Shown here: piece by piece, positions 47,972 to 64,000 of the stretch
Layout: each line of letters starts with the position of its first letter
Numbering within the stretch: the stretch's first letter is position 1
Program-made: the position numbers and the translations under genes
Assembly: GCA_000091205.1 (NCBI GenBank)
Contig: AP006501.2
Direction: 5' to 3' (one strand)
Source: Cyanidioschyzon merolae
Taxonomy: Eukaryota
Length of the DNA stretch: 64,000 nucleotides
The notes under the pieces: model-generated
Seen by the model: only the letters and a program-made list of their open reading frames with translations
Told to the model about the DNA's origin: nothing
The model's database searches: none

Positions 47972-49363
47972 ATGAGCGTATCTTGTGGACGGCGGATCTT
48001 TTCAGACATTGTGCGTCAAGTACGCACGTTTGCTACCGTGGGCGTAGACGCTCGCTCGCTTGCAGGTACACGCAACGCCACGGTCTGGCGATCGTACCGC
48101 ACGACGACGTTGCAGTACCCGCGGCTTTGGGAACTGCGCGCTTCGCGCTTCCTCTCAGGTGAGGCGGTGGAGGCGAGTGCAAGCAAACGCAAGCCCCATC
48201 TGAATGTTGGCGGTATGGGTCACGTTGACCATGGGAAAACTACGCTCGCGGCAGCGATTACGAAAGTGCTCGCCGAGACTGGTGGAGCCCGGTACACTGC
48301 TTACGAAGAGATTGACAAGGCACCGGAGGAGCGCGCCCGCGGGATCACGATCAACGCTTCGCATCTCAAATACGAGACTCCATCACGTTCGTATGCACAT
48401 GTCGATTGCCCTGGGCATCGAGACTTTGTGAAGAACTTTATCACGGGTGCGGCACAGGTCGACACCGCGATTCTCGTGGTCAGCGGCCCGGACGGCCCGC
48501 AGCCGCAGACTCAAGAGCACGTACTGCTATCGAAGCAGGTAGGTGTTCCGAACTTTGTTGTATACCTGAACAAATGTGATATGGTCGACGATCCGGAACT
48601 TTTGGACTTGGTCGAATTAGAGGTGCGTGAACTACTCAGCAAGTACGAATACGATGGCGACAACGTGCCGATCGTGCGGGGCTCTGCCCTGAAGGCATTG
48701 CAGGGCGATCAGAGCGAGCTTGGCTGTGGGTCCATCCACAAGCTCCTGGAGATTCTCGACAAGGTCCCAATACCCAAAAGAGACCTTGAAAAACCGTTCC
48801 TGATGCCCATTGAAGATAGCTTTAGCATTACTGGCCGAGGAACGGTGGTTACGGGACGCGTGGAGACCGGTATCCTACGCCCTGGTGATGAAATCGAAAT
48901 CGTCGGACTTCGTCCTCCCGAGGTAGCACCAATGCGCACGATCGTCACCGGTATCGAGACTTTCAAGCAGTCGCTTCCTTACGCAGAGGCTGGCGAGAAT
49001 GTTGGCTGTCTGCTTCGCGGGGTCAAGCGCGAAGACGTGTTGCGCGGTCAGGTTCTAGCGAAACCGGGAACCTCCAGAGCGCACCGCAAGTTCGAGGCTG
49101 ACGTTTACATTCTTACTCAGGAGGAAGGCGGCCGCCATACACCATTCTTCAGCAACTATCGTCCTCAATTCTTCGTGCGGACTGCAGATGTCACAGGACG
49201 CTTCCTTCTGCCGCCAGAAGTGGAGATGTGCATGCCAGGAGATCGCGTACGATGCGCTGTTGAGCTCATCTATCCGGTCGCGCTGCAGGAAGGCTTACGT
49301 TTCGCTGTTCGTGAGGGCGGCAGGACCGTCGGTGCTGGGTTGGTTACGAAAGTCATCGAGTAA
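47972..49363 (+). CDS. TUFM: elongation factor Tu, mitochondrial (nuclear-encoded, with presequence)
   Basis: The start is an ATG. The G-domain motifs are [18 protein letters not shown] and NKCD. The mitochondrial-type signature is [13 protein letters not shown]. An N-terminal Arg-rich extension of ~60 aa precedes these. Confidence 0.9.
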
Positions 49364-50780: not shown

Positions 50781-50818
50781 TGTCTCCGCTGCTAGCGAAC
50801 GCCTTTCAAAAAAAAGGT

Positions 50819-50892
50819 TGCTCCCGGCAGTGTACAGTAGCGGCGAGTGACCCGCCCTAGACGAGACGTCTCCAACTGAGGTGCAGACGCCT
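50819..50892. repeat. left copy of ~74-bp direct repeat flanking the Fanzor-like locus
   Basis: The left copy reads gctcccggcagtgtacagtagcggcgagtgacccgccctagacgagacgtctccaactgaggtgcagacgcctg. The copy at 54371..54444 reads gctgcccgcggtgcacggtagtggcgagtgacccgccctaaacatgacgtctccaactgacgtgcagacgcttc. They are ~85% identical and in the same orientation. Both are preceded by A-rich tracts. Confidence 0.6.
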
Positions 50893-51002
50893 GTCGGGCT
50901 TTCTCGACCGGCCACTTACTACTCTTTTCCATTCTTGTCTCATATAATTCCACTTTGAGCGATTGTCCAACGAAGTTCTCTCGTGTCTAAGCTGTAGGTC
51001 TA

Positions 51003-53347
51003 TTACCCGTCACCGCGCATTTTTCTCATATTGATTGCGGAGTTAAAGTCTCGGTTCACGAAATCCATTCGTTTCTTGCCATCACTGGATGTACTTACTA
51101 CGGCAAGTTGTCCGAGAACTTTCGCCCTCCTTTCCATTTGCTCTTCTGTCAGCGCTCCGTACTTTGCTATTTCCTCAGGGCTCCTCTGGCACTTTTCCAT
51201 CTTCACTCTCTGAAGTGTACAACCCAGCTCATGGTGAGTATAGGACGTTCGAAACTCCTCTACCCGTATCATAACGAAACGACGTGCGCACTCCTTGTAC
51301 ACCCTCGTCGTTGGAGCTAGCGTAGTTCCTTTTTGGGTCTTCCAGCGCCCTGCTCGATACGCTACTACGAGCCTCTGACTGTCATCCTCCATCAAGGCAC
51401 TCAGCTGATTGAAAAAATTCGCGACCGCCCGCTGCTTCCCACAATACAAATTCATTCGCAAACGAGCCCACCGGGGCTTGGTATACTCTTTCCACAGCGT
51501 ATCCCAGTGCGCCATGCGAACTTCCATGACTTTCCGAAAAGCTTCAAAGTCCGCTCCTCGGCAAGTCACCTAGCTCCAAGCTTCCAGGTGATCTTTCATT
51601 CCTGAAATCCATGTCTCGATTTTCTTCCTCGCATTCATGATTCCCGAGTCTTGATAGTATCTCCCTCTCGAGAACCTCAAAAGACGCATGTCTTTCTGAC
51701 GTAAGTTACCATCAGTACCATCTTCCGCACGCTTCAATGCTGCGATGGTAATGATATTCGTATTCCCAGGGTCCGCGCCAACGACAAAGTCGTTATCTAG
51801 CACTCTCTGGGTCGCAGGGCCCACCTTCTTGTCTTCTTCATGCTTCACCGCGTCAACGACAAGGTCTTTATCCTGCATTTCCTGCGTCGTAGAATCCGCC
51901 TTCTTCGCATCTTCATCCTTCGCCGCGTCAACGATAAAGTCGTTATCCTCCACCGCCTGCGTCGCAGGACCCGCCTCTTGGTTTTCTTCATGCTCCTCTG
52001 CGTCAACGGCAAGCTCGTTATCCTCCACCTCCTGCGTCGCAGGACCAGCCTCCAGCTCATCTTCATCGTTCGTCACGCCAACGACAAGGTCGTTATAATG
52101 CACCTCATGCATCGCAGGATCCGCCTCCTACTTTTCTTCAGCCCTCGTTCCGGGCGCAGCCGATGGAGGGACTGGACGATCTTTCTTCAACCGTCGATAG
52201 TGTACGCACACGGTTACTCCATCGGTTTCGATCATCCCAGTGAGCTACTTTTGCTTGCTCGTTTTGAGACGTTTGAAACCGAAGATATTCTTCCAGTACG
52301 TCTCCCGGTTTTCGCCGGTGAAGTGCTCCCTACTAATATTGAACTCCGCACTGATCTCCTTTATGATGCCGTAAAGGACCGCGGAGTCGATCGTCATAAA
52401 ATGAGCCTTGATGTTGCACAACGGAACGACATTGAAGCACTCACCCAATAGGAAAGCCTTCCGTCTCTCCCATTCTTCATTTTTCCTCACTCAGCTTCAT
52501 CTCCGCTTTGCGTTCGAGCTCTCGGCCCAGAAACACAAAATACCGCCGGAAGATGCGATAGTATCTTTCCTTATCTTTTTTCAACTCTGATATCTTGTCT
52601 GTTGGATTCACCAGCCCCAAGACTGCACGATGCTCTTGTATAGCCGCACGGGTTACAGATACTTCATTCGTGCTCCTTTTTTGACGTCTTCTTGTCGACG
52701 AATTCGACGTAATCTTCATGCTGGCGATCTTTCGTGATGCCACTGATGATCGACCATATCCCCTTGCGAGAGATGCCCGGGTTGAGTGCAAACGCGGTGC
52801 GTATCATGAAACATGCGAGGTTCTCTGTCAAATGGTTCTTCAGGTTCGTGATGTACTTCATTGCCCCATATGTGTAAATATGCGAGTCACCCCTGCGCCG
52901 AGCACCCTCGAAGCGGAATACCGCGAAGTTTTCGTGGAGAGTATGCATTAGCACATTTTCCCTCCACGTTCCCGCTGTACCATGCATCAGGTATCGAAAA
53001 GACGTCTTGTCGAAGAACTCGCCCGGAATCTCGACCGTTTCCATCTGCGTCATTTGTTCGTACATCTCCCTCGCCAAATGCATCAGTCCGGAAGACGCCT
53101 TGGCAATACTCTTGGAGTACGAGTCGACATGCTTTCTGATAGCGTCTCGCAACTTTTCCGTATAGGGATGCTTGATATGTCCAAGAAGAGAGGTTTTCAC
53201 CACTATCTCGTGGTACAGTTGTCGTTCTTGCAGCCTTCGACGTAGGGCCTCCCATTTTGCTTCTTTTTCTTTTGCTCTTCGTCGGGACTCGGCACTGTAT
53301 TTGTTTTTCTGGCAGCCGGCGACAATGGCGCTTCAGGATCGTGGACT
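51003..53347 (-). pseudogene. degraded Fanzor/TnpB-like RuvC nuclease gene (eukaryotic OMEGA/TnpB homolog), interrupted by stops and frameshifts and containing an acidic tandem-repeat block
   Basis: Consecutive minus-strand ORFs at 52664..53203, 52477..52791, 52245..52490, 51570..52112 and 51003..51569 are collinear. A RuvC-I-like segment [16 protein letters not shown] lies at ~52200. A TSxxC pre-zinc-finger motif FVMIRVEEFRTSYTHHELGC lies at ~51230. The RuvC-III motif KKRMDFVNRDFNSAINMRKM lies at ~51030 (cf. TnpB/Fanzor RDxNAAxNI). ORFs 51570..52112 and 51003..51569 are in the same frame, separated by a single TGA. No ATG precedes the N-terminal frame. Confidence 0.55.
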
Positions 53348-54370
53348 TGCTTTTTCATAGCTCTCCTTTTTTAGGTATTTTCGAAAAAGAACGCTCTTTG
53401 AACCCTTCTGTTATATACTGCGAAAAAGTACTTGACTAGACTTGTTTGAGGGCTGAAACAAAAATGAACTGAAAGACTTTACTTGGCTAAGAGCTCAACG
53501 GAAATCCAACTTTTTCTGGCAGAACAACACGCTCGTTACTAGGATCGCGTTTCCCTTCAACGGCGGCATGCGCGTCGTGTCAGTTCACTGCCTGATCTCC
53601 GAGGCGTGCTCCCTGAGCGCGATGCGTGCACCGCGCGAGACGCTGCACCGATCCATGAAGGACACGTGTCCGACACCGCCTTGGCATATGCGTATTCGCA
53701 CCGCACTGCAGCTGGAATAAAGTATCGTAGATTGGAAACTCACGTAGAATGATCTCTTGCCATAGGCTCTGGCGGCGGTGCCAACGCTACTGCCCATCGC
53801 AGTACCGACCTGACGTACAAGGGGATTTTGGGGCCTGGCGAGATACCCCTCGACGCTTCTATAAAAAGCGTTGCGTTCTCTGCGGCTTACGCTTGTGTGG
53901 ATAAGGAAAACATTATTCTACTCAATGGGATTTTCGTTAGTTTTATTGATCGTAAACAAACAAGGCACGATAGGATTCCTGAACACGGATACACGTTTAA
54001 TCCCGGTGCTTGTTATGCATGCGGCACGGACGCTGGAATAACGAACTGACCTGAGTTGTGCTTCTATCCTGCGTCACGTTCTGGAACTGATGGCAGATCA
54101 AGTCATTTCCATGCTATCGTCGTTGTCCAAGTTATGGCGCCCGCTACTCTCCCGGATCCTGTGATCTTGGGAGAGGCATAGCATACATAGAGCGTTCATA
54201 CGTGGCACAGCACTTGACCAACGCATCTCACCTGGAACGATCGAGGAACCCGCCAAAAAAAGCATACTGAATTCTGATCTACTCTTTAAGATTAGTTTCA
54301 GGAGACTAACCCATACATCGAGCCCGGAAGAGACACAGCCGACAAAAAATGCTTTTGAAAAGAAAAACGC

Positions 54371-54444
54371 TGCTGCCCGCGGTGCACGGTAGTGGCGAGT
54401 GACCCGCCCTAAACATGACGTCTCCAACTGACGTGCAGACGCTT
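54371..54444. repeat. right copy of ~74-bp direct repeat flanking the Fanzor-like locus
   Basis: See the left-copy entry for the alignment. This copy lies 3,552 bp downstream in the same orientation. Confidence 0.6.
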
Positions 54445-54827
54445 CCAAAATAACATACCACCGGAGGAAATTCCCTTATACCTCCTCTACGGTATTCGTC
54501 GGAGAGCCACGTCGACGTTCGTGAACGGTCGTTTAGATATCTGAGCGCAGCACTGCGGAACCCTTGGCACTAACTGCTGATGAGGTTGTTGATGGGAAGC
54601 ATAGGAGTTTTGCCTAGTTTCTCAGAAAGACATTGAGCACTTGTGCTAGATGTGCTCAACGCTATGCAGTGTACGGGAGATATAGGTCAGACTCTGGACA
54701 ATTGACGGGCGATCACTCTTGCAGCTACGCAAAAGAGGTTTTTGACTGGATACGCATGGTTGAGCGAACGTCTCTAGTTGGTGGCGCGTTCAGCAGCTTT
54801 GCACCAGAGGAAATCTAATGCAAGAAA

Positions 54828-55903
54828 ATGCAAGCTCTTTTCGTTTTTGTCCCGTTGTACCAGGAAAGACACATTGTTCGCGCGCGCGCTGCAACTCGAG
54901 CACGGTTCCCGCTACGTACCGCACGTGACGGGTGCTTCGCAGACGGACAATGCCACCACTGTCAGCATCCGCTTCCCTTGTTAGTGCAGCCCTCGCCTGT
55001 AGCACGCCGGCACCACGCTCTGCATCTTCGTATGGGCCCGAAACAGTCGCAGGTCGCCGTGATCACTGGCGCGTCCTCTAGAGTCGGTCTGTATTCCGCT
55101 CGCGCTCTGATCAGCAAGGGCAACTGGCACATCGTCATGGCATGTCGTGACGTCGACCGGGCGGAACGCGCAGCAAACAGCGTGAACCTTCCAAAGGACG
55201 CCTATACAGTGCTGCATTGTGATCTGGCTGATTTCGCCTCTGTGTTGAAGTTTGCGAGAGAGCTATCGAGTGTGGCGCGCGTGGATCACCTGGATGCCCT
55301 GATCTGCAATGCCGCACTCTGGCATCCGCGGGACAAGAAACCGCTTCTCACGGTGGACGGCATCGAGAAGGCCATACAGGTTTGCTATCTGAGCCATTTG
55401 CTTATATGTCGGAGGCTATTGCCGAAGCTGAAAGTATCGCGCGGGCGCATTGTGTTTCTGACGACTCAGACCCATTCGCCGAATTCGTTGCCGGGAAAGA
55501 TTCCCCCGCAGGCTCGTCTCGGTGACTTGTCTAGTCTAGCCGCGGGGCTTGGTCCGCGGACGACGGGCATGGTGGACAGTGGCCCGTTTGAGCCCACAAA
55601 AGCCTACAAAGACGCCAAAGCCGCGAACGTTTTATCAATGAAGGCGCTCAGTGATCGATACGGCCGCGACGGGGTGACCTCTGTGGCGATTTTCCGGGAT
55701 GTGTCGCCGACAGCAACCTCTTCCGCGAAAAGCGTGGCTGGTTCCGATACGTATTCTTCCCGATTCTTCAGAAGTATATCACTCCGCAATACGTTCCGAA
55801 TGACGAGGCCGGCCGCCGTGTAGCCGAAGTGGCGACCCAGGGACAGTTCCCGGACTCGGGCTCGTATTATCAGTGGCGTGGCAAATATACGTATGGGGGA
55901 TAG
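54828..55903 (+). CDS. POR: light-dependent protochlorophyllide oxidoreductase (LPOR, SDR family) homolog with an apparent 1-nt frameshift near 55695
   Basis: The LPOR alignment runs full length. VAVITGASSRVGLYSARALISKGNWHIVMACRD matches ViTGASSGLGLaTAKALAetGkWHViMACRD. The LPOR-specific insertion loop (…PPQARLGDLSSLAAGL…KAYKDAKAANVL) is present. In frame 0 the ORF reads …GVTSVAIF, then the homology continues in frame +2 as PGCVADSNLFREKRGWFRYVFFPILQKYITPQYVPNDEAGRRVAEV… (cf. [47 protein letters not shown]). It ends at TAG 55901–55903. One C missing from ttcc(c)ggg at ~55695 explains the shift. The ~68-aa N-terminal extension MQALFVFVPLYQERH… resembles a transit peptide. Confidence 0.75.
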
Positions 55904-56182
55904 AAGACCGAACCGCAGGTTATTGAACCAACGTAAGAAATCGACAAGGCAGATCAGCTTTACGAACTGAGTCTTGATCTGATCGACCAGGCGTTACGGA
56001 GGCGAGGCCTAAAGTCGAATTACTTGGCCCCTGTCTAAGGTTTGTTAGTGATGAAAATGAGATGCGGGCTTCGGAGCGCAGACCGCTGCGTCAAGGACGG
56101 ATGTGGGAGCAACAGCGTAACGATGAGACGACACCCCACTGTCACAATCGGATAGCGGACGGATGGGTGGGCACACCTCCTG

Positions 56183-57804
56183 ATGTGGAGAACCAAAATT
56201 GCTTCGCAAGTCAGAAAGCGTACTGCAGTAGTGATTAATATAGCTATAGCTATGACCTACTTCGCATCGAATGCGCCAGAGACTGCCAACTGTGGTCGTT
56301 CAAGAGGGCAGAGCGCGTTTATTTGGGTAATTTTGTGCGGTGAAGAATACGGCAATAGAAGCGCACTTGCAGACGTTTGAACGATCTGTGGGTATTCGAT
56401 ATCAAACTGGGTCAACGGGCGTGGATTAATGGAAGCTCGGTAGTGAATACTCTAGCAGTATATGGGGCATTGAGCGAGTCAGGCCCGAATAGTGTACCAA
56501 GTACTCGCTATGGATCAGCTTTCTGGGACACTAGTAGGACTGATCCGATCGTATTTGTTGGAAATGGATACATAAACACGAGCGGCAGTGACTTTCTCAA
56601 TGATGTCTTTGCATTAAAGAAAACATTCCCTACTCCAACACCAAAAACTTCGCGGACACCTACCCCCATCTGCTCCAATGAGCTCTGCGGATCTCCAGGA
56701 CAGTGCATCAACCAGGACGCTTGCGAGCAAGTCGGGTGCTGCTTTAACTCCCAGACGAACGCTTGCACCCTGAAGAGCGTCTCAGCGGCGTGCAGCGCTG
56801 TTGAAGTGACGCAGCGCGTCACCTGCGGCTGGAGCTACATCTACCCCGACGAGTGCACTGCGATACCGGGATGCTGCTGGCAGCCCACAGCGAACGGCAT
56901 CCTGGCACCCTGGTGCTACTACGACATCAACCATGCACCGCAGGCTTCCGTAGCGCTGCAGGAGATGCAGGCACCGGTTCCCGTCTGCGCATCACCGGGA
57001 GCGCAGCGCCAGCCATGCGGCGACGCGGGTATCAACCAGTTTACCTGCTATGCCCAGGGCTGCTGCTACGACTCGCAGGCGCAGAACCAGTGGGTGCAGA
57101 ACGGCAAGCAGCAGAGCGACTTTGCGTCGAACCCGTACTGCTTCCAGCCTGAGAAGACGTGCGCGGTGGGCGAGTTTGAGCGCCAGCCGTGAAATAACGT
57201 GGTGAATCAGAACCAGCAGCGGAGCAACAATAACATCAACAGTAGCCAGTTTGTGCGTCTGCTGAACACGGTCCTTTACGGAGAGCAGCACGGGACGCCG
57301 CGCACGAGCTACGCGTCGCAGCAGTGTCTGGAGGCTGGTTGCTGCCTGGGGATCGGCAACGAGTGCTTCCAGCCGGTTACCGAGTATGTTTGCCAGACCT
57401 ATGGGTATGCGTCGAACTCGCTGAGCGGCACGACCGGCAAAGTGTCGAACTCGACGTATATTCCATGCGGCTCCGAGTGCTGCAACGCCGAGACGCAGAA
57501 CTGCACGTAAAACCCGTTCAGTAACAACAATAACCAGCAACTGCAGCAACAGCAGGTGCTGTTGCCGTCATTCTGTGTGTGCAAGGACCCTACAGTTCAG
57601 TCCGGGACGTACCTGATCGCTTCGGATAACCTTGTGCACAAGGTGCGTTGCTGCCGCTCTGGCGAGGAGTGCATCAACAACAAGTGTATGATGATTAGTC
57701 CTACGCCGTCTCCGAGTGCCGTTATTGCGACTGCAACTGCGTCTGCAAGTGCGTTGGTATTGGTGTCGACCTCGACGCGTGCCTCAGCAAGTACTTCAGT
57801 ATGA
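56183..57804 (+). pseudogene. Kelch-like + triple trefoil (P-domain) cysteine-rich, S/T/P-rich membrane/secreted protein gene, disrupted by one 1-nt frameshift and two in-frame stops
   Basis: The ATG at 56183 is followed by a hydrophobic anchor AVVINIAIAMTYFASNA and a Kelch-type repeat (RGQSAFIWV…GNRSALADV). The frame shifts at ~56376, where gacgttt(t)gaac is missing one T, and continues NDLWVFDIKLGQRAWINGSS…VPSTRYGSAFWDTS. Three trefoil domains follow. The third is CASPGAQRQPCGDAGINQFTCYAQGCCYDSQ…NPYCFQP. It carries R-x-x-CG and GCC(Y/F)D and ends in CF, the WCF position of the consensus. The same frame continues through a TGA at 57190 and a TAA at 57508 into more Cys-rich sequence. It ends with a Ser/Thr/Ala tail. 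Confidence 0.45.
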
Positions 57805-58487
57805 ACCACTGCGTAGACGGCAGCTATCTGTACGGCCCCGCGCGCGCGAACACAGAACTAAAACATGTTTCAGTTATTGGTATATTGATTCCATGAGGAA
57901 CGTGGTTGTACAATATAGTTCGCACGTGCATGCACGCAACCTTCCAGTCCGGGTTGGGGGCCCACAATCCAATGTTGAGGGTATCTGGACACCAAACTTA
58001 GCCCTAGACTGGACATCGACAAATATGCAGATGGCCTGCAGAAAGAGGGAGTTTTTCGTACTGCGTCATAGCGGGCCGGGTCCGAATGTGCGACGGGCAC
58101 GCCATTAGCCTTTTTCGATATTTGGACTCTGCAAGGGTATTTGAAACACGACTGCGGCGTAGACTGCTACTTTGTATTGCCATTACGAGAGCGCCTTCAT
58201 GAAACTCGGTAGCAGACGCTGCAAAATATCTTTGTCCATTTATGATAGAAATGTCCTGTTGCGGGAGCGCCGTGCGCAGATCTGCGTCATTCAGACGGCG
58301 GTGCTTGACGCGCTCCCGTGCTGCTTACCTCAGAATACTTCGTGGAGGCTCGTAGTGGTACGGACGGAGACAGCAGTGACAACAGTACCAGCAGCTGGAG
58401 GCTCTCCTATCCCTGTAGATAGTAAGCAACTCGTTTCTCTGGGAGGCGTTTACTTTTGACTGGTGCAGAACCCCTTTCGTATCCTAT

Positions 58488-60677
58488 ATGCGAAAAAGGT
58501 ATTTTTCTATTGTGAGACTCCTGGTTATAGTATTGGTTGTGTCGGGAACACACACAGTTCGTGGAGTTTTGTCCGCAGAGAATACTGTATTATGGACCTG
58601 GATCGGTGGTAGTAGCTCTAACGGCAGTTCAGGTAGCTACGGTGTTCAGGGTGTGCCGAACACCAGCAACGTGCCTCCGGCGCGGTACGGTGCGGCCTTC
58701 TGGACCGGCGCTGACGGGGTGCTCTGGTTGTTTGGTGGTGGCAGCGACTTGAGAGACGTCTTCGGTGATCTCTGGAACTACAATCTAAGCACGTTCTCTT
58801 GGACCTGGGTTGGAGGCTCTGCATCCCTCAACTCTGGAGGGGTATACGGCTCCCTCGGAGTTCCCAACAAGAGCAACTATCCGCCTTCGAGGACGGAATC
58901 CGCTGCTTGGAGTGACAGCAACGGAAACCTTTGGTTATATGGAGGCTGGAATTTGAACTTGGGCTATAGTGATATGTGGATGTATAATGTATCGTCGGGC
59001 GAGTGGACATGGGAGCAGGGATCCAACAAGACCAATGTTTCCCCGACATATGGTCCTCTTGGGAACTCGTCTGCAAGCAACACGCCTGGCGCTCGTTTCC
59101 AACCCGCGACCTGGGTTGGCCTAGATGACCAGTTTTATCTCTTTGGTGGATTTAGTCCTAGTGGTACGTATTACGGTGACTTGTGGCAGTACAACACAGT
59201 GACCAACGAATGGAGCTGGATAGGTGGCACTCAACAGCTGTCTCCCTCTGGAAGCTATGGTGCGTTTCGCCAGGCATCGCCGAACAGTTATCCCGCTGGA
59301 CGTTTCGGAGCCACCTCGTGGCGAGACCTTGATGGGAACTTTTGGCTATATGGCGGTTTGGGAGAGATTGACGCAGTTGGCAGCTTTCTCAATGATTTAT
59401 GGCTGTACAATATCAGCTCCAAAGAATGGACTTGGATGTCTGGAGATGACAGTGTTGGCTCAAATGGGGCAGTATACGGCGAGAAAGGAGTGCCGTCATC
59501 GAGCAACACTCCGGGGTACAGATCCGGTTCCTCTGGATTTGTAGACTCGTCAAACACTCTGTATCTCTTCGGTGGTGTTTCACGCGGCGTCTGCAACGAC
59601 CTGTGGACGTTCAATATAACGAGTCTTGAATGGACTTGGGTAGACGGTGACGATACAACGAATGGAGCCTATAGCTACGGCGAGGTTAACAAGACAAGCA
59701 ATACAACGCTTCCACCTCCGCGATACGATGCAGTTCTTTGGAATACCGATCAAAACGACCCGGTCCTATTCGGAGGCCTCGGTAGCTCAGGTAGCTATAA
59801 CGACCTCTTCACATTATACATCGCAGCACCGACGCCTACACCGACCGCAACACCGACTCCGACGGCCTCACCGACGCCCTCCGTTACTGCAGCACGGTCG
59901 GCAACGACAAATGTGACGCAGACCGCTGTAGGCGAAGGCTCTGCGGTCTGCTTCCCCGCGGATGCCTCGGTGCTGATCGATGGTCTGGGCAACCATCTGC
60001 AGATAAGCGAGCTTCGATCAGGTATGGCCGTGATGGGCGTCAATGGGCGCGGGCAACTGGTCGAAGATAGTGTACTAGGATGGTTGCATAACGAGCCCGG
60101 CGCTACTGCAGAGATTCTGGCGATCAAGACGCTTTCCGGAAAGCAGCTGCGTCTGACGAGACAGCATCTGGTATATCGAGTGATCGAACACTTTAGAGAC
60201 TTTGATAGTATGATGACCACTTTCTCGTGTATTTCACAGAAGCAGCAGCAGCAGCATCAGAAGCACATACGTCGGAGCCTTGAGTTGGGTACCACCGCCG
60301 TTGAGGCAGTTTTCGCGGAAGATATCCGCGTTGGCGACGCTCTGCTGGACGTTGCTGCGCACCTGCCGGACCCCGTGGTGGCAATCGAGACAGTAGTTAC
60401 GCACAATGGTCTCTATGCGCCGTTGACTCGCTCAGGGCGCCTTGTGGTCGACGGCGTTCTCGTGAGCTGCTACGGGACGTACGCATCGCATGCCGTGGCC
60501 CATGCAGTGTTGTGGCCTGCGCGGGTCGATGCTCTGCGCAAGGTATGGACATCAGGGCTCGGCACAGAGGGTATTGTGGGTATCATGCCATACGCAGAAA
60601 GGCTCTATCACATTTGGACGAGTGCAGCACGTGTTTTAACGGAGGCTCGCGTAAGTGTTGTAGTTGCAGCCTGCTGA
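58488..60677 (+). CDS. Hog-type protein: signal/anchor + 6-blade Kelch beta-propeller + Thr/Pro linker + C-terminal Hint (Hedgehog/intein-like autoprocessing) domain
   Basis: The start is an ATG. The N-terminal hydrophobic segment is IVRLLVIVLVVSGT. Kelch repeats recur about every 50 aa with a W.W(I/V)GG…YG..G…P.RyG…W…g.L(W/Y)l(F/Y)GG…DLW.YN motif. A linker APTPTPTATPTPTASPTPS follows. The Hint domain starts at Cys (nt 59949). CFPADASVLIDGLGNHLQISELRSGMAVMGV…ILAIKTLSGKQLRLTRQHLVY matches Hedgehog CFPGSATV.leqGGtK.vkdL.pGDrVLAad…ie…t.ltltAaHLlF. NGLYAPLTRSGRLVVDGVLVSCYG matches GaYAPLTaqGtiLinrVLASCYA. Confidence 0.75.
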   Translation: MRKRYFSIVRLLVIVLVVSGTHTVRGVLSAENTVLWTWIGGSSSNGSSGSYGVQGVPNTSNVPPARYGAAFWTGADGVLWLFGGGSDLRDVFGDLWNYNLSTFSWTWVGGSASLNSGGVYGSLGVPNKSNYPPSRTESAAWSDSNGNLWLYGGWNLNLGYSDMWMYNVSSGEWTWEQGSNKTNVSPTYGPLGNSSASNTPGARFQPATWVGLDDQFYLFGGFSPSGTYYGDLWQYNTVTNEWSWIGGTQQLSPSGSYGAFRQASPNSYPAGRFGATSWRDLDGNFWLYGGLGEIDAVGSFLNDLWLYNISSKEWTWMSGDDSVGSNGAVYGEKGVPSSSNTPGYRSGSSGFVDSSNTLYLFGGVSRGVCNDLWTFNITSLEWTWVDGDDTTNGAYSYGEVNKTSNTTLPPPRYDAVLWNTDQNDPVLFGGLGSSGSYNDLFTLYIAAPTPTPTATPTPTASPTPSVTAARSATTNVTQTAVGEGSAVCFPADASVLIDGLGNHLQISELRSGMAVMGVNGRGQLVEDSVLGWLHNEPGATAEILAIKTLSGKQLRLTRQHLVYRVIEHFRDFDSMMTTFSCISQKQQQQHQKHIRRSLELGTTAVEAVFAEDIRVGDALLDVAAHLPDPVVAIETVVTHNGLYAPLTRSGRLVVDGVLVSCYGTYASHAVAHAVLWPARVDALRKVWTSGLGTEGIVGIMPYAERLYHIWTSAARVLTEARVSVVVAAC

Positions 60678-63600
60678 GCTGGCAATCTGCCCTGCAGGAC
60701 AGGGGCGAACAGTACCGATGGTACCACTCTAGGTGCTGCTTTTTCTGCCATAGGATAGTGTTTGAGCAATGATGGTAAAACGCGCTCTATCGCGAAAAAG
60801 CATCCCGCAGCATATTGCCAGGCATTTTTGATATGTGATGGTACCAGATCCACTTATATAAACGAGCGGAGTTGCAAAGAAGTATTCGTGTGTGTGAAAT
60901 CGAGGCACGCCGCGAAATACAGTTTTATGTACCAAGATGTACTGTAGCGCCAATACTTGCGGAGAGCAATAGCAGCAGCTGCCGGTTACATGAGACTGAG
61001 TGAGCAGAGGTTTGCATGCATCTATGCTTCGAAATAGTATTGTGGCTGGGGAGTTGTGGAGCGCTCCGCTCGAATATACATTCAGATATGAAAATTGGCT
61101 CTTAGCACTGGGGCGTGGTTCTTGGAACGGTGCAGTGAGAGCGATAAGGATTTCACAGTTGGGAAGATACGAGAAAAATCTATGAAAATTGTTTCAAGAA
61201 AGAAGAGCTGTATTGAATGCAATATGATCAAGATTCGCGACTGAATGTGGAGAAATAGAATTGGTTATAGTCGTACAATTCTACAGCTCCTGCAGTGGAA
61301 AGCATGAAAACGGAAAGTTATAAGGCCAAGGAGTAAATATCTCACGGTTATTCCGTTGATGCACTGCAGATGAGAAGGACTGCCAGGAAAAATATCGGCA
61401 GTGAAATGAACCTGGCTGTCAGTAGACTTCACTAGAAAGAACGTAACCACAGCCTGATCCCCATAGTTATAAGGCAGAGTGTACTGTGCCAGAGGCTCTG
61501 CACACTGCTCCAAACTTTGTGTAAGAAGATGTTTATATTTATGTTCTGGTGCCCTGGAGGGTGCACAGTATGTATATACTTCATAATTAATGTAAAGCAA
61601 GTTCCCGTGCTGATGAGCTCAGTCGTGCCAGTCCTGCTGATCGCACAAGGCAGCCTACTGGTAGCAACAAACCGGTGCTTATGGAACGATCGACCTGAAT
61701 GGGCCTGTCGCCACGACTCCGACCGACGAGGCGTACCGCAGAGCGAATCCTGCATACAGTGGAGCTAGTCAGAAAGTCCATGATGTAAGTCTAGATGAAG
61801 CTCAAGTGGGCGCGCGACATTCAACTGGTACCTTGGAGTTTGCTACAGTCTCGTCCTGACAAGCTCCGAGTCAGCCGCGGTACACGCGTTTGGAGTTGTT
61901 CGAGTTCTGGCTCTAGTGCGTTTATCGGCATAAACCGCTACATGTCCGGAGTGAGCTACAGGTGAAGCCAGTCTGTGCTTTGTGGATACGCAGCAGCCAG
62001 CATGTGCCAGGAGCTGCATCCGGTAAACTCTGGGTCATAAGGAATGAAGGCGAGACGCCAAGCAGCAAGCTTTGAACAATAAACAAGAGGCAAGGACGCT
62101 AAGGTCAGAGTTTGGGTGCTCGCGATCTTTGCCTCCAACCAAGCATCCCTGAAGCAGCCGCAAGCAGACTTGTATGGGCGAAAAGCTCATTGTCATATCG
62201 GGGCCAGCTGCTCTTTGATGCCGAGGCGGCGCGGTGGCTGATTCCGCCTTCCAGGAACGGTAGCGCGGAACAGTGCTATTGCTACTCTAGAGATGTGTAG
62301 GGGCAATAACTAGACAGATTAGTGAACAGTGGTTCGTGAATTCAGTGTACGCGTACAAGAAAGAGCATAGGGAACAGTGTTGTGCGTGAATCCAACAAAT
62401 CAGAATACAGACCAGAAAAAGAGGCCTCGATCATGGTCTGTTTCTAGTGCACATGTGGTTCCCTGCATTCTGCCCTGCGACAATGTGTTCATTCCTGTAA
62501 ACAATCTATATGGATGGTAAACAATGTTGGATCTCAGCTTGTATGAGAATATGCCTGGTACCGCAAGCACTACCGAGGCGATGCGCTGAGGTGCATTGCT
62601 AGACCCTAAAGATCGGCACGGGGGAAGAGTAATCAGCTGTACTGGATCTTCTCAACTTCACTGGAAACGGTATCCGAGTCGGAATGCAGAATACGGGTCG
62701 GCAGCAGAGAAACAGATATAACGTACGCTTAGCGCCTGTGGATGCTTATGGTAAGGACGCGAAGCTAGACGTACATTCAAATACTGAATGGACCCAACAA
62801 ATTATATCCATGTACCTTGTCTGAACAACCACGGCACGCGCATCGATACGAAGGGTCGCTTTCCCGTATAAGGCGATTCCTCCGGAAGCCTGCCCTGTCG
62901 ACGTGCGACGCGCAGCTGCTGTTCGCAGTGGCGCCAAGTCCGGTCTGCTGCGTGCTGCATAGCGACCGCGCAAAGTGATTACGAGCGCCTCCTACACAAT
63001 GATCGGTAAGCCGAAAAGGAGATTGGAGCTCCTAATAGAAGTAACGTGCCCACCGCTACTGTATTGCTGCCTGAGACCCAAGGGCCGGGTCGTCTTTTTT
63101 TTCCAACATTGCTCTCGGATCATCCATGAATCGGATCCACACGCAGGCAACAACAGGTCCCGGACCTACAAGCTGTCGACGAAGAAACCGCACCAGAGTC
63201 GCCTGGAAGCTAGCCACTAGCAAATTTGAGCTTAGTTACGGCTAGTGCTAGGAACGCTGACAGGGAAGAGATAGAGTTGCAACTGAGAAGATGTTCCAAA
63301 AAAGATATGTAGCTTTGTGCTTGCAGCTGAGTAGGGTGACTTACAGCAAGTTCATAACAATGAAAGAAATACGAACAATGATGACTACTGTGGATATTCG
63401 GAAAGCTCTGAAACGCGGTGGATATGAATGTATGGACGAAGGGCTTGCAAACAACGATCAAAATCGTGTGAAGAAACACGATGAGGATAGTAGAGTTCCT
63501 AAGCGGAGCAAACAACGCACACAGCCACTGTGCTGGTCTGAAGTCGCAGATAATTGAAAGCTCAACAATACCAAGCCATGTGCAAATGTAAGGCCATTCT

Positions 63601-64000
63601 TTAGGTACGAAGGGAACACAATTCGCCAAGAATATAAGCAGAAATATATCGAAAATAACATGAAAAGAGCACTTTCTTTGTTCGGTTAAGATATTTGTGT
63701 GACAATGGAGACAACCTAGCACCGAAAAAGCAGCATTTAAGTACTGTGAGATGTTGAGAGAAGAAAACGGGAACAAAATATGGTGAAGAACGACACAAAC
63801 GAGAGCAACGAAAGCTCGCGGGCGATTCAGACCACGAGCGACAGCCGGGGCCCAAAAAATAGGAAACTACGAGGCGGTCACGCTAAAATGCATCGATAAT
63901 ACTGCGCGTACTGGAGTATCCAGGTGGCAACACACAGAAATATGATGAAAAAGATTCCCTTCGGACCAATCGCTAGAGACATTAATACTGGAATGGGGGG

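Follow-up and report, generated by a model that had tools for sequence, protein, structure and literature searches.

LPOR and the subtelomeric elements of Cyanidioschyzon merolae

Chromosome ends of the red alga Cyanidioschyzon merolae carry repeated subtelomeric elements, and the original description (Nozaki et al. 2007, BMC Biol 5:28; PMC1955436) names among their genes E, P (NADPH:protochlorophyllide oxidoreductase), T (trefoil) and H (hedgehog). In the same paper, PH elements are listed at 6L, 7R, 8L, 8R, 11L, 14R, 18R and 19R, the telomere unit of this organism is given as AATGGGGGG, and the chromosome ends of strain 10D are said to have been finished by PCR cloning. A later study of subtelomeric duplications in Cyanidiales (Cho et al. 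2023, Nat Commun 14:10) describes Kelch, trefoil and hedgehog as a shared family, and this family is also present at 19R. Both papers, in the text consulted, treat P as a gene without giving the state of decay of individual copies, whereas we report here that the P gene of 19R, and probably also its T gene, are pseudogenes.

The por genes of strain 10D used by Hunsperger et al. (2015) are CMD190C, CMG217C and CMN338C, none of which is located on chromosome 19, and chlL, chlN and chlB are listed there as absent from the plastid genome of C. merolae. Light-dependent protochlorophyllide reductase (LPOR) hence is essential to this alga, while the copy at 19R is itself redundant. In the main texts of the literature, we found no mention of the three gene IDs.

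The right end of chromosome 19

The DNA that we analysed, a stretch of 64 kb that is referred to as the window in the following, ends in a telomere repeat. From approximately 50.3 kb onwards, it contains a ubiquitin-conjugating E2 gene, a 75-bp tandem repeat, an LPOR copy, a trefoil frame, a Kelch-Hint gene and ~3.3 kb without a recognised gene, followed by the telomere. The features surrounding the LPOR copy are the following.

50800–63991, no strand: repeated element of the subtelomere (the 19R "PH element"; Nozaki 2007, PMC1955436), parts of which are found again with 75–96% identity on at least 40 metagenome contigs
56359–57801, plus strand: trefoil-domain ("T") reading frame with an in-frame TGA at 57190–57192 and TAA at 57508–57510, probably a pseudogene
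58488–60677, plus strand: Kelch + Hint ("hedgehog", "H") gene, an intact ORF of 729 aa
63992–64000, plus strand: telomere repeat unit AATGGGGGG, the end of the window

That the window is chromosome end 19R follows from the telomere unit, from the order of its genes (E2, POR, trefoil and Kelch-Hint) and from the PH element that Nozaki et al. list for 19R, and the LPOR copy, which lies ~8 kb from the right telomere of chromosome 19, is its P gene. The last ~13 kb of the window resemble the PH element of Nozaki et al. in that they are adjacent to the telomere, contain both POR and Kelch-Hint and have homologous copies elsewhere. The homology to metagenome contigs spans ~50.8–56.3 kb, in some of them extends to ~60 kb, and is mostly found at contig ends. 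An earlier note on this DNA, made from the letters alone, had deduced a photosynthetic host from the presence of a POR gene. This was correct, because the organism is the red alga C. merolae 10D, and a 463-aa mitochondrial EF-Tu ORF at 47972–49363 is identical to BAM83042.1 of this strain.

The decay at this chromosome end extends beyond LPOR into the neighbouring T frame, which is probably a second pseudogene of the 19R subtelomere. This frame lacks an ATG in its first open stretch as well as most Kelch repeats. The site of its TGA is TGC (Cys) in six other copies, and that of its TAA is TAC (Tyr) in five. Both stops are reproduced in the metagenome copy L007, which is 97% identical there.

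Some further observations concern the remainder of the element. For the 729-aa Kelch-Hint ORF, there is no identical product in the protein-position index, such that the annotated model may differ or be absent. The 75-bp tandem repeat (51773–52147; 5 copies, ~74% matches) has a conserved position in many metagenome copies, and the overlapping ORFs on both strands that contain it gave no hit in Pfam. A 95-bp direct repeat with 82% identity occurs at 50798–50890, the inner edge of the element, and at 54348–54442, just upstream of LPOR. L016 and L020 are among the metagenome copies that match 50798–50890 at the 95-bp repeat upstream of LPOR, and this direct repeat could be a recombination junction. 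There are no tRNA genes in the 64-kb window.

Identity of the LPOR copy

The LPOR copy of 19R comprises the following parts.

54828–56038, plus strand: the whole LPOR pseudogene, 403 codon positions that are co-linear with the intact 403-aa LPORs of C. merolae and include one frameshift and two in-frame stops
54828–55031, plus strand: N-terminal extension, codons 1–68, corresponding by homology to the plastid transit peptide in the intact paralogs
55065–55088, plus strand: NADPH-binding motif, reading TGASSRVG, with the Arg codon AGA at 55080–55082
55464–55598, plus strand: segment corresponding to the part of PORB with the LPOR-specific insertion (TQTHSPNSLPGKIPPQARLGDL...FEPT), retained according to the PORB alignment
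55605–55619, plus strand: catalytic YKDAK (YxxxK), retained and aligning with YKDSK of PORB
55690–55698, plus strand: frameshift site TTTTCCGGG (T4C2G3), with a change from frame 0 to +2 at 55694
55901–55903, plus strand: in-frame TAG, which is GAG (Glu) in the intact copies
55934–55936, plus strand: in-frame TAA, which is TAC/TAT (Tyr) in all other copies

Several lines of evidence agree that this is an LPOR homolog, as the earlier note had proposed, and not a short-chain dehydrogenase (SDR) of the RDH11–14/WWOX type. When the repaired protein was used to search the PDB, LPOR structures matched at E-values of 6e-72 (Arabidopsis PORB, 7JK9/9TL6) to 2e-60, with cyanobacterial LPORs at ~1e-61, as compared to 2e-10 for the best SDR that is not an LPOR. 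The alignment to PORB crosses the frameshift as well as both stops and ends at most three residues short of the PORB C-terminus. Furthermore, the LPOR family TIGR01289 matches at 1.4e-85, the next family at 2e-22. The nearest named proteins are all red-algal protochlorophyllide reductases, the closest of them outside the Cyanidiophyceae being those of Chondrus, Agarophyton, Pyropia and Gracilaria with ~51–56% identity.

With TIGR01289, the repaired protein scores 287.5 bits, the intact LPORs of C. merolae and Cyanidiococcus 310–315 bits and that of Chondrus 342.7 bits. Since the intact Cyanidiophyceae LPORs likewise fall below the curated equivalog cut-off of 331.35 bits, this cut-off is not diagnostic for the Cyanidiophyceae, and the informative figure is the deficit of ~23–25 bits that the 19R copy shows relative to its own intact paralogs.

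In comparison with the LPORs of plants and cyanobacteria (PORB, 7JK9/9TL6; Thermosynechococcus/Synechocystis, 6L1H, 6RNV and 6R48), the 19R copy is co-linear across the whole mature enzyme at ~45–50% identity. It shares with them the YxxxK motif with both its catalytic Tyr and Lys, the PGC(I/V)A segment, and the segment at 55464–55598, which aligns without large gaps to the part of PORB that is known to hold the LPOR-specific insertion absent from other SDRs. However, unlike in these enzymes, the frame is broken, the region of the C-terminal helix is cut by stops, and the Gly of the cofactor motif is gone.

Intact LPOR genes and the transit peptide

Two intact LPOR genes of 403 aa are found elsewhere in C. 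merolae 10D, namely CMG217C on chromosome 7 (P0138/BAM79708.1) and CMN338C on chromosome 14 (P0137/BAM81403.1), and both are ~92% identical to the 19R copy. They have the same length in codons, the same start and the same transit-peptide region as the 19R copy. The ends listed with PH elements by Nozaki et al. include 7R and 14R next to 19R. The earlier note had reserved the term pseudogene for the case that a second POR copy was lacking. This condition proved to be misplaced, since CMG217C and CMN338C are intact and CMD190C exists in addition, and the 19R copy is a pseudogene nonetheless.

The third gene, CMD190C on chromosome 4, is unusual in itself. The sequence given in the supplement of Hunsperger et al. 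(2015), as well as the protein P0009, read PTKAFKDAK, with Phe replacing the catalytic Tyr of YxxxK, and carry several other unusual replacements. Judging from these residues, CMD190C may be catalytically impaired too, though it is counted as a por gene.

The N-terminal extension of the 19R copy, which begins MQALFVFVP, is homologous to the N-terminus of a paralog annotated as "chloroplast precursor". The earlier note had likened it to a rhodophyte-type transit peptide on account of the Phe residues at positions 5 and 7. Phe5 is retained in the intact paralogs as well as in the orthologs from Cyanidiococcus (MNAMFV), Cyanidium (MAFI) and Chondrus (MAFV), and therefore is conserved in red algae, whereas the residue corresponding to Phe7 is Ser in the intact paralogs, which makes Phe7 specific to the lineage of the 19R copy. 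A rhodophyte-type transit peptide is a reasonable reading of this segment, which is a relic feature of a dead gene.

Four lesions

Starting from the ATG at 54828, frame 0 can be read up to ...GRDGVTSVAIF, the last Phe codon of which is 55692–55694. From 55694, frame +2 reads PGCVADSNLFREKRGWFRYVFFPILQKYITPQYVPNDEAGRRVAEV..., and the LPOR text in this frame is PGCVADSNLFRE...QKYITPQYV...EAGRRVAEV. With an intact C. merolae LPOR as the query, tblastn placed residues 1–289 in one frame and residues 289–403 in the next, and no residue was missing. The change of frame within a continuous LPOR homology, as noticed earlier, is thus evident both from direct reading and from the gapless two-frame alignment. 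The tract at this site is TTTTCCGGG (T4C2G3) in the 19R copy and TTTTCCCGGG or TTTTTCCGGG (T4C3G3 or T5C2G3) in intact homologous copies. One base hence was lost from the T/C run at 55690–55695. That a base is missing had been recognised before, but it need not be the C that was proposed, since a T from a TTTTT run is equally possible.

Restoring this base had been expected to yield a full-length enzyme ending at 55903, but this end is wrong. The TAG at this position is a nonsense substitution of the GAG found in the intact paralogs, and the homology continues for ~35 further codons, such that the earlier single-frame reading, a method whose limits become visible here, took one of the lesions for the end of the gene. 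The terminal TAA of the co-linear LPOR frame is at 56036–56038, and the resulting total of 403 codons equals the length of the intact paralogs. Within the ~35 codons lies the second nonsense codon, the TAA at 55934–55936. The remaining lesion affects the cofactor motif, where the Gly-rich sequence TGASSGxG is not kept, because the AGA at 55080–55082 encodes Arg in place of a Gly (GGG/GGA) that is present in every other copy and ortholog covering the site. The TAG, the TAA and the Gly-to-Arg change are new relative to the earlier note. In the intact paralogs CMN338C and CMG217C, the four sites read Gly, FPGC in frame, Glu and Tyr.

As a consequence of the frameshift and the two stops, an uninterrupted LPOR frame is absent from the 19R copy. 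Translation from the ATG gives 331 aa, of which 289 are LPOR residues and 42 are out of frame, and neither the PGC(V/I)A strand nor any of the C-terminal third is part of this product. Going by what is known about LPOR structure and function, no active enzyme should arise from it, and light-driven protochlorophyllide reduction by the 19R copy would not be expected. The possibility raised earlier that the gene is inactive is borne out by the frameshift, the two nonsense codons and the damaged cofactor motif.

The protein sequence has also changed in other places. In an alignment of the 19R copy, the two intact paralogs and the orthologs from Cyanidiococcus and Cyanidium, the 19R copy carries 17 unique replacements at sites that are otherwise invariant in Cyanidiophyceae, as compared to one in each of the intact paralogs. 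When Chondrus is added, the numbers become 9 for the 19R copy and 0 for both paralogs. The 19R copy differs from CMG217C and CMN338C in these 17 replacements as well as in the 1-nt deletion, the two nonsense codons and the Gly-to-Arg change.

A full-length enzyme could in principle be obtained from the sequence as it stands if the lesions were recoded, either by a programmed −1 frameshift, with Phe-tRNA moving from UUC to UUU, together with readthrough of the stops, or by a variant genetic code. If tRNA-Phe slipped by −1 on A-UUU-UCC, CCG (Pro) would indeed come next and the result would be exactly ...AIFPGC..., and the homology does run on through both stops. However, the zero frame contains no X-XXY-YYZ heptamer, the folding of the 92 nt downstream is no better than that of shuffled sequences (z −0.60), and even with frameshifting, the two stops would still need readthrough. 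The intact paralogs, furthermore, are read in a single frame and have sense codons at both stop positions, from which it follows that the lesions are derived and are not conserved signals. We consider recoding scarcely credible. Its two specific forms were rejected, the frameshift on account of the missing heptamer, the missing downstream structure and the lack of conservation of the shift in the paralogs, and a code with TAA and TAG as sense codons because ordinary stops end long neighbouring ORFs, among them the 463-aa EF-Tu that equals its annotated protein, because the paralogs have sense codons at these sites, and because the organism is C. merolae.

Copies of the element in metagenomes

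For comparison, we used 43 contigs carrying the LPOR of this element that came from a scan of JGI metagenomes (loci L005–L047; e.g., Ga0078972, Ga0080006 and Ga0207433). These contigs stem from a repeat family, and they could be chimeras themselves. In most of the 43, LPOR is located at or near the end of the contig, and in one case it is found at both ends of a 76-kb contig (L021/L022), which is the signature of a multi-copy repeat. Stops and/or frameshifts are present in 18 of the 20 full-length copies from hot-spring metagenomes. They occur at differing positions, which is the pattern expected from the neutral decay of a repeat family, and natural Cyanidioschyzon-like populations thus hold many dead LPOR copies.

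Two of the four lesions of the 19R copy have counterparts among these contigs. The TAG, in a distinctive GGGGGATAG context, is common to L005, L011, L015, L018 and L032. The exact T4C2G3 tract is also present in L024, and L020, which is the closest copy with 96% identity over 5 kb, has a T3C3G3 tract of equal length and the same shifted ORF of 331 aa. The other two lesions, the Gly-to-Arg change and the TAA, occur in no copy but that of 19R, and thus in a single reference sequence. Contigs L001–L004, which bear the EF-Tu gene, end at ~51.4–52.6 kb in window coordinates and hence inside the repeat, such that they are of no use for confirming the lesions. No independent assembly identical to the 19R LPOR locus was retrieved, and no identical independent product is on record for the 331-aa frame-0 ORF, the 263-aa ORF starting at Met69, the 729-aa Kelch-Hint ORF or the two intact NCBI LPORs. 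We also considered that the shared TAG might mark the end of a shorter but functional allele, and rejected this because every copy with the TAG has further stops or shifts.

These copies are also relevant to the suggestion of the earlier note that the frameshift might be a sequencing error, in which case the gene would be functional and its model would only need manual repair. A single-base shift in a T4C2G3 run is at a typical site for errors of sequencing or assembly, PCR cloning was used to finish the chromosome ends (Nozaki et al. 2007), and the start codon, the transit peptide, YxxxK and the LPOR-insertion segment are all preserved. However, after repair of this base, the two in-frame stops and the Gly-to-Arg change would remain, and it is implausible that finished Sanger sequence should contain four independent errors within 900 bp. 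Independent assemblies again show the TAG and the shortened tract, and the excess of unique replacements at invariant sites (17 versus 1) speaks of accelerated protein change. An error thus is highly improbable as an explanation, and we regard the lesions as biological, since the TAG is found in five independent contigs, the T4C2G3 tract in L024, the same shifted ORF in L020, and the stops of the T frame in L007.

Constraint and timing of inactivation

Pairwise dN/dS between the 19R copy and metagenome-contig DNA of the intact type is 0.26–0.35 at a dS of ~0.12–0.23, these being averages over both lineages. Together with the fact that nearly all replacements are polarised to the 19R lineage, this suggests relaxed selection and not neutrality throughout. 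A ratio of this size, instead of one near 1, further suggests that constraint acted, or that conversion had a homogenising effect, during much of the divergence, and that the inactivation is relatively recent.

It might be asked whether the 19R copy, though enzymatically dead, is still in use, be it as a regulatory or decoy RNA, as a plastid-imported truncated Rossmann-domain protein of 331 aa, or as a conversion donor for the active LPORs. The ATG and the transit-peptide region are intact, the 331-aa ORF persists and is present in the same shifted form in L020, the mosaic similarity described below suggests exchange among copies, and pairwise omega is below 1. However, 289 codons of open frame are no more than a young pseudogene would be expected to keep, the motif for the cofactor is damaged, and the lesions of the sister copies are different and non-overlapping, which speaks for neutral decay rather than for a conserved truncated form. 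The chromosome ends of C. merolae, moreover, are enriched in repressive H3K27me3 (PMC5405695). A non-enzymatic role of the 19R copy has no positive support, and we deem such residual use very unlikely.

Origin of the 19R copy

In bins of 200 bp, the region upstream of LPOR and the 5′ half of LPOR are 94–100% identical to L020, L016 and L031. From ~55.5 kb on, the closer copies are L032, L011, L025 and L008, followed by L024 and L007. This mosaic is consistent with an exchange between chromosome ends, be it by ectopic recombination or by gene conversion, though chimeric metagenome contigs are also possible.

We conclude that the 19R locus is very probably a non-functional copy of a nuclear gene for plastid LPOR that arose by duplication, and not by retro-processing, within a multi-copy subtelomeric PH element. 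Segmental duplication of subtelomeres and ectopic recombination would have spread the element from one chromosome end to another, and LPOR, its transit peptide and start codon included, would have been copied along with it. With the enzyme being supplied by intact paralogs elsewhere, the 19R copy would have been free to drift, and it has accumulated the 1-nt deletion in the T/C run, the two nonsense substitutions, the Gly-to-Arg change and many replacements at otherwise invariant residues. The mosaic similarity to different sister copies suggests that gene conversion between chromosome ends may be continuing.

A more far-reaching scenario would be that the LPORs at chromosome ends form a birth-and-death family, in which most copies of a given genome are dead but exchange segments by ectopic gene conversion, such that the reservoir of pseudogenes diversifies or repairs the few active copies. 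The mosaic similarity of the 19R copy, the differing lesions of its sisters and a pairwise omega well below 1 are compatible with such a reservoir, which we nonetheless consider unlikely. If it were true, a core photosynthesis gene would have an architecture in the style of contingency genes, and this for the sole route of the cell to chlorophyll, given that the plastid genome contains no DPOR genes.

The duplicated pseudogene that we favour has little significance beyond annotation hygiene. The subtelomeric element itself has been known since 2007. In annotations, the 19R locus should be marked as a pseudogene that has four lesions, and it should neither be given a repaired coding model nor be entered as a functional por copy in tallies of red-algal LPORs. 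More generally, subtelomeric copy counts in Cyanidiophyceae can overstate functional dosage, since most LPOR copies in hot-spring metagenomes are broken as well.

An open reading frame of full length can also be deceptive in this family. Locus L016 and the proteins P0006, P0140 and P0141 present a 403-aa ORF of the 19R-type lineage that contains an out-of-frame stretch of 33 codons (GDLCGDFPGMCRQ...SDSS), generated by a +1 insertion followed by a compensating −1 deletion. Gene callers have named it protochlorophyllide reductase, and yet, as far as can be judged from its reading frame, it is very likely non-functional.
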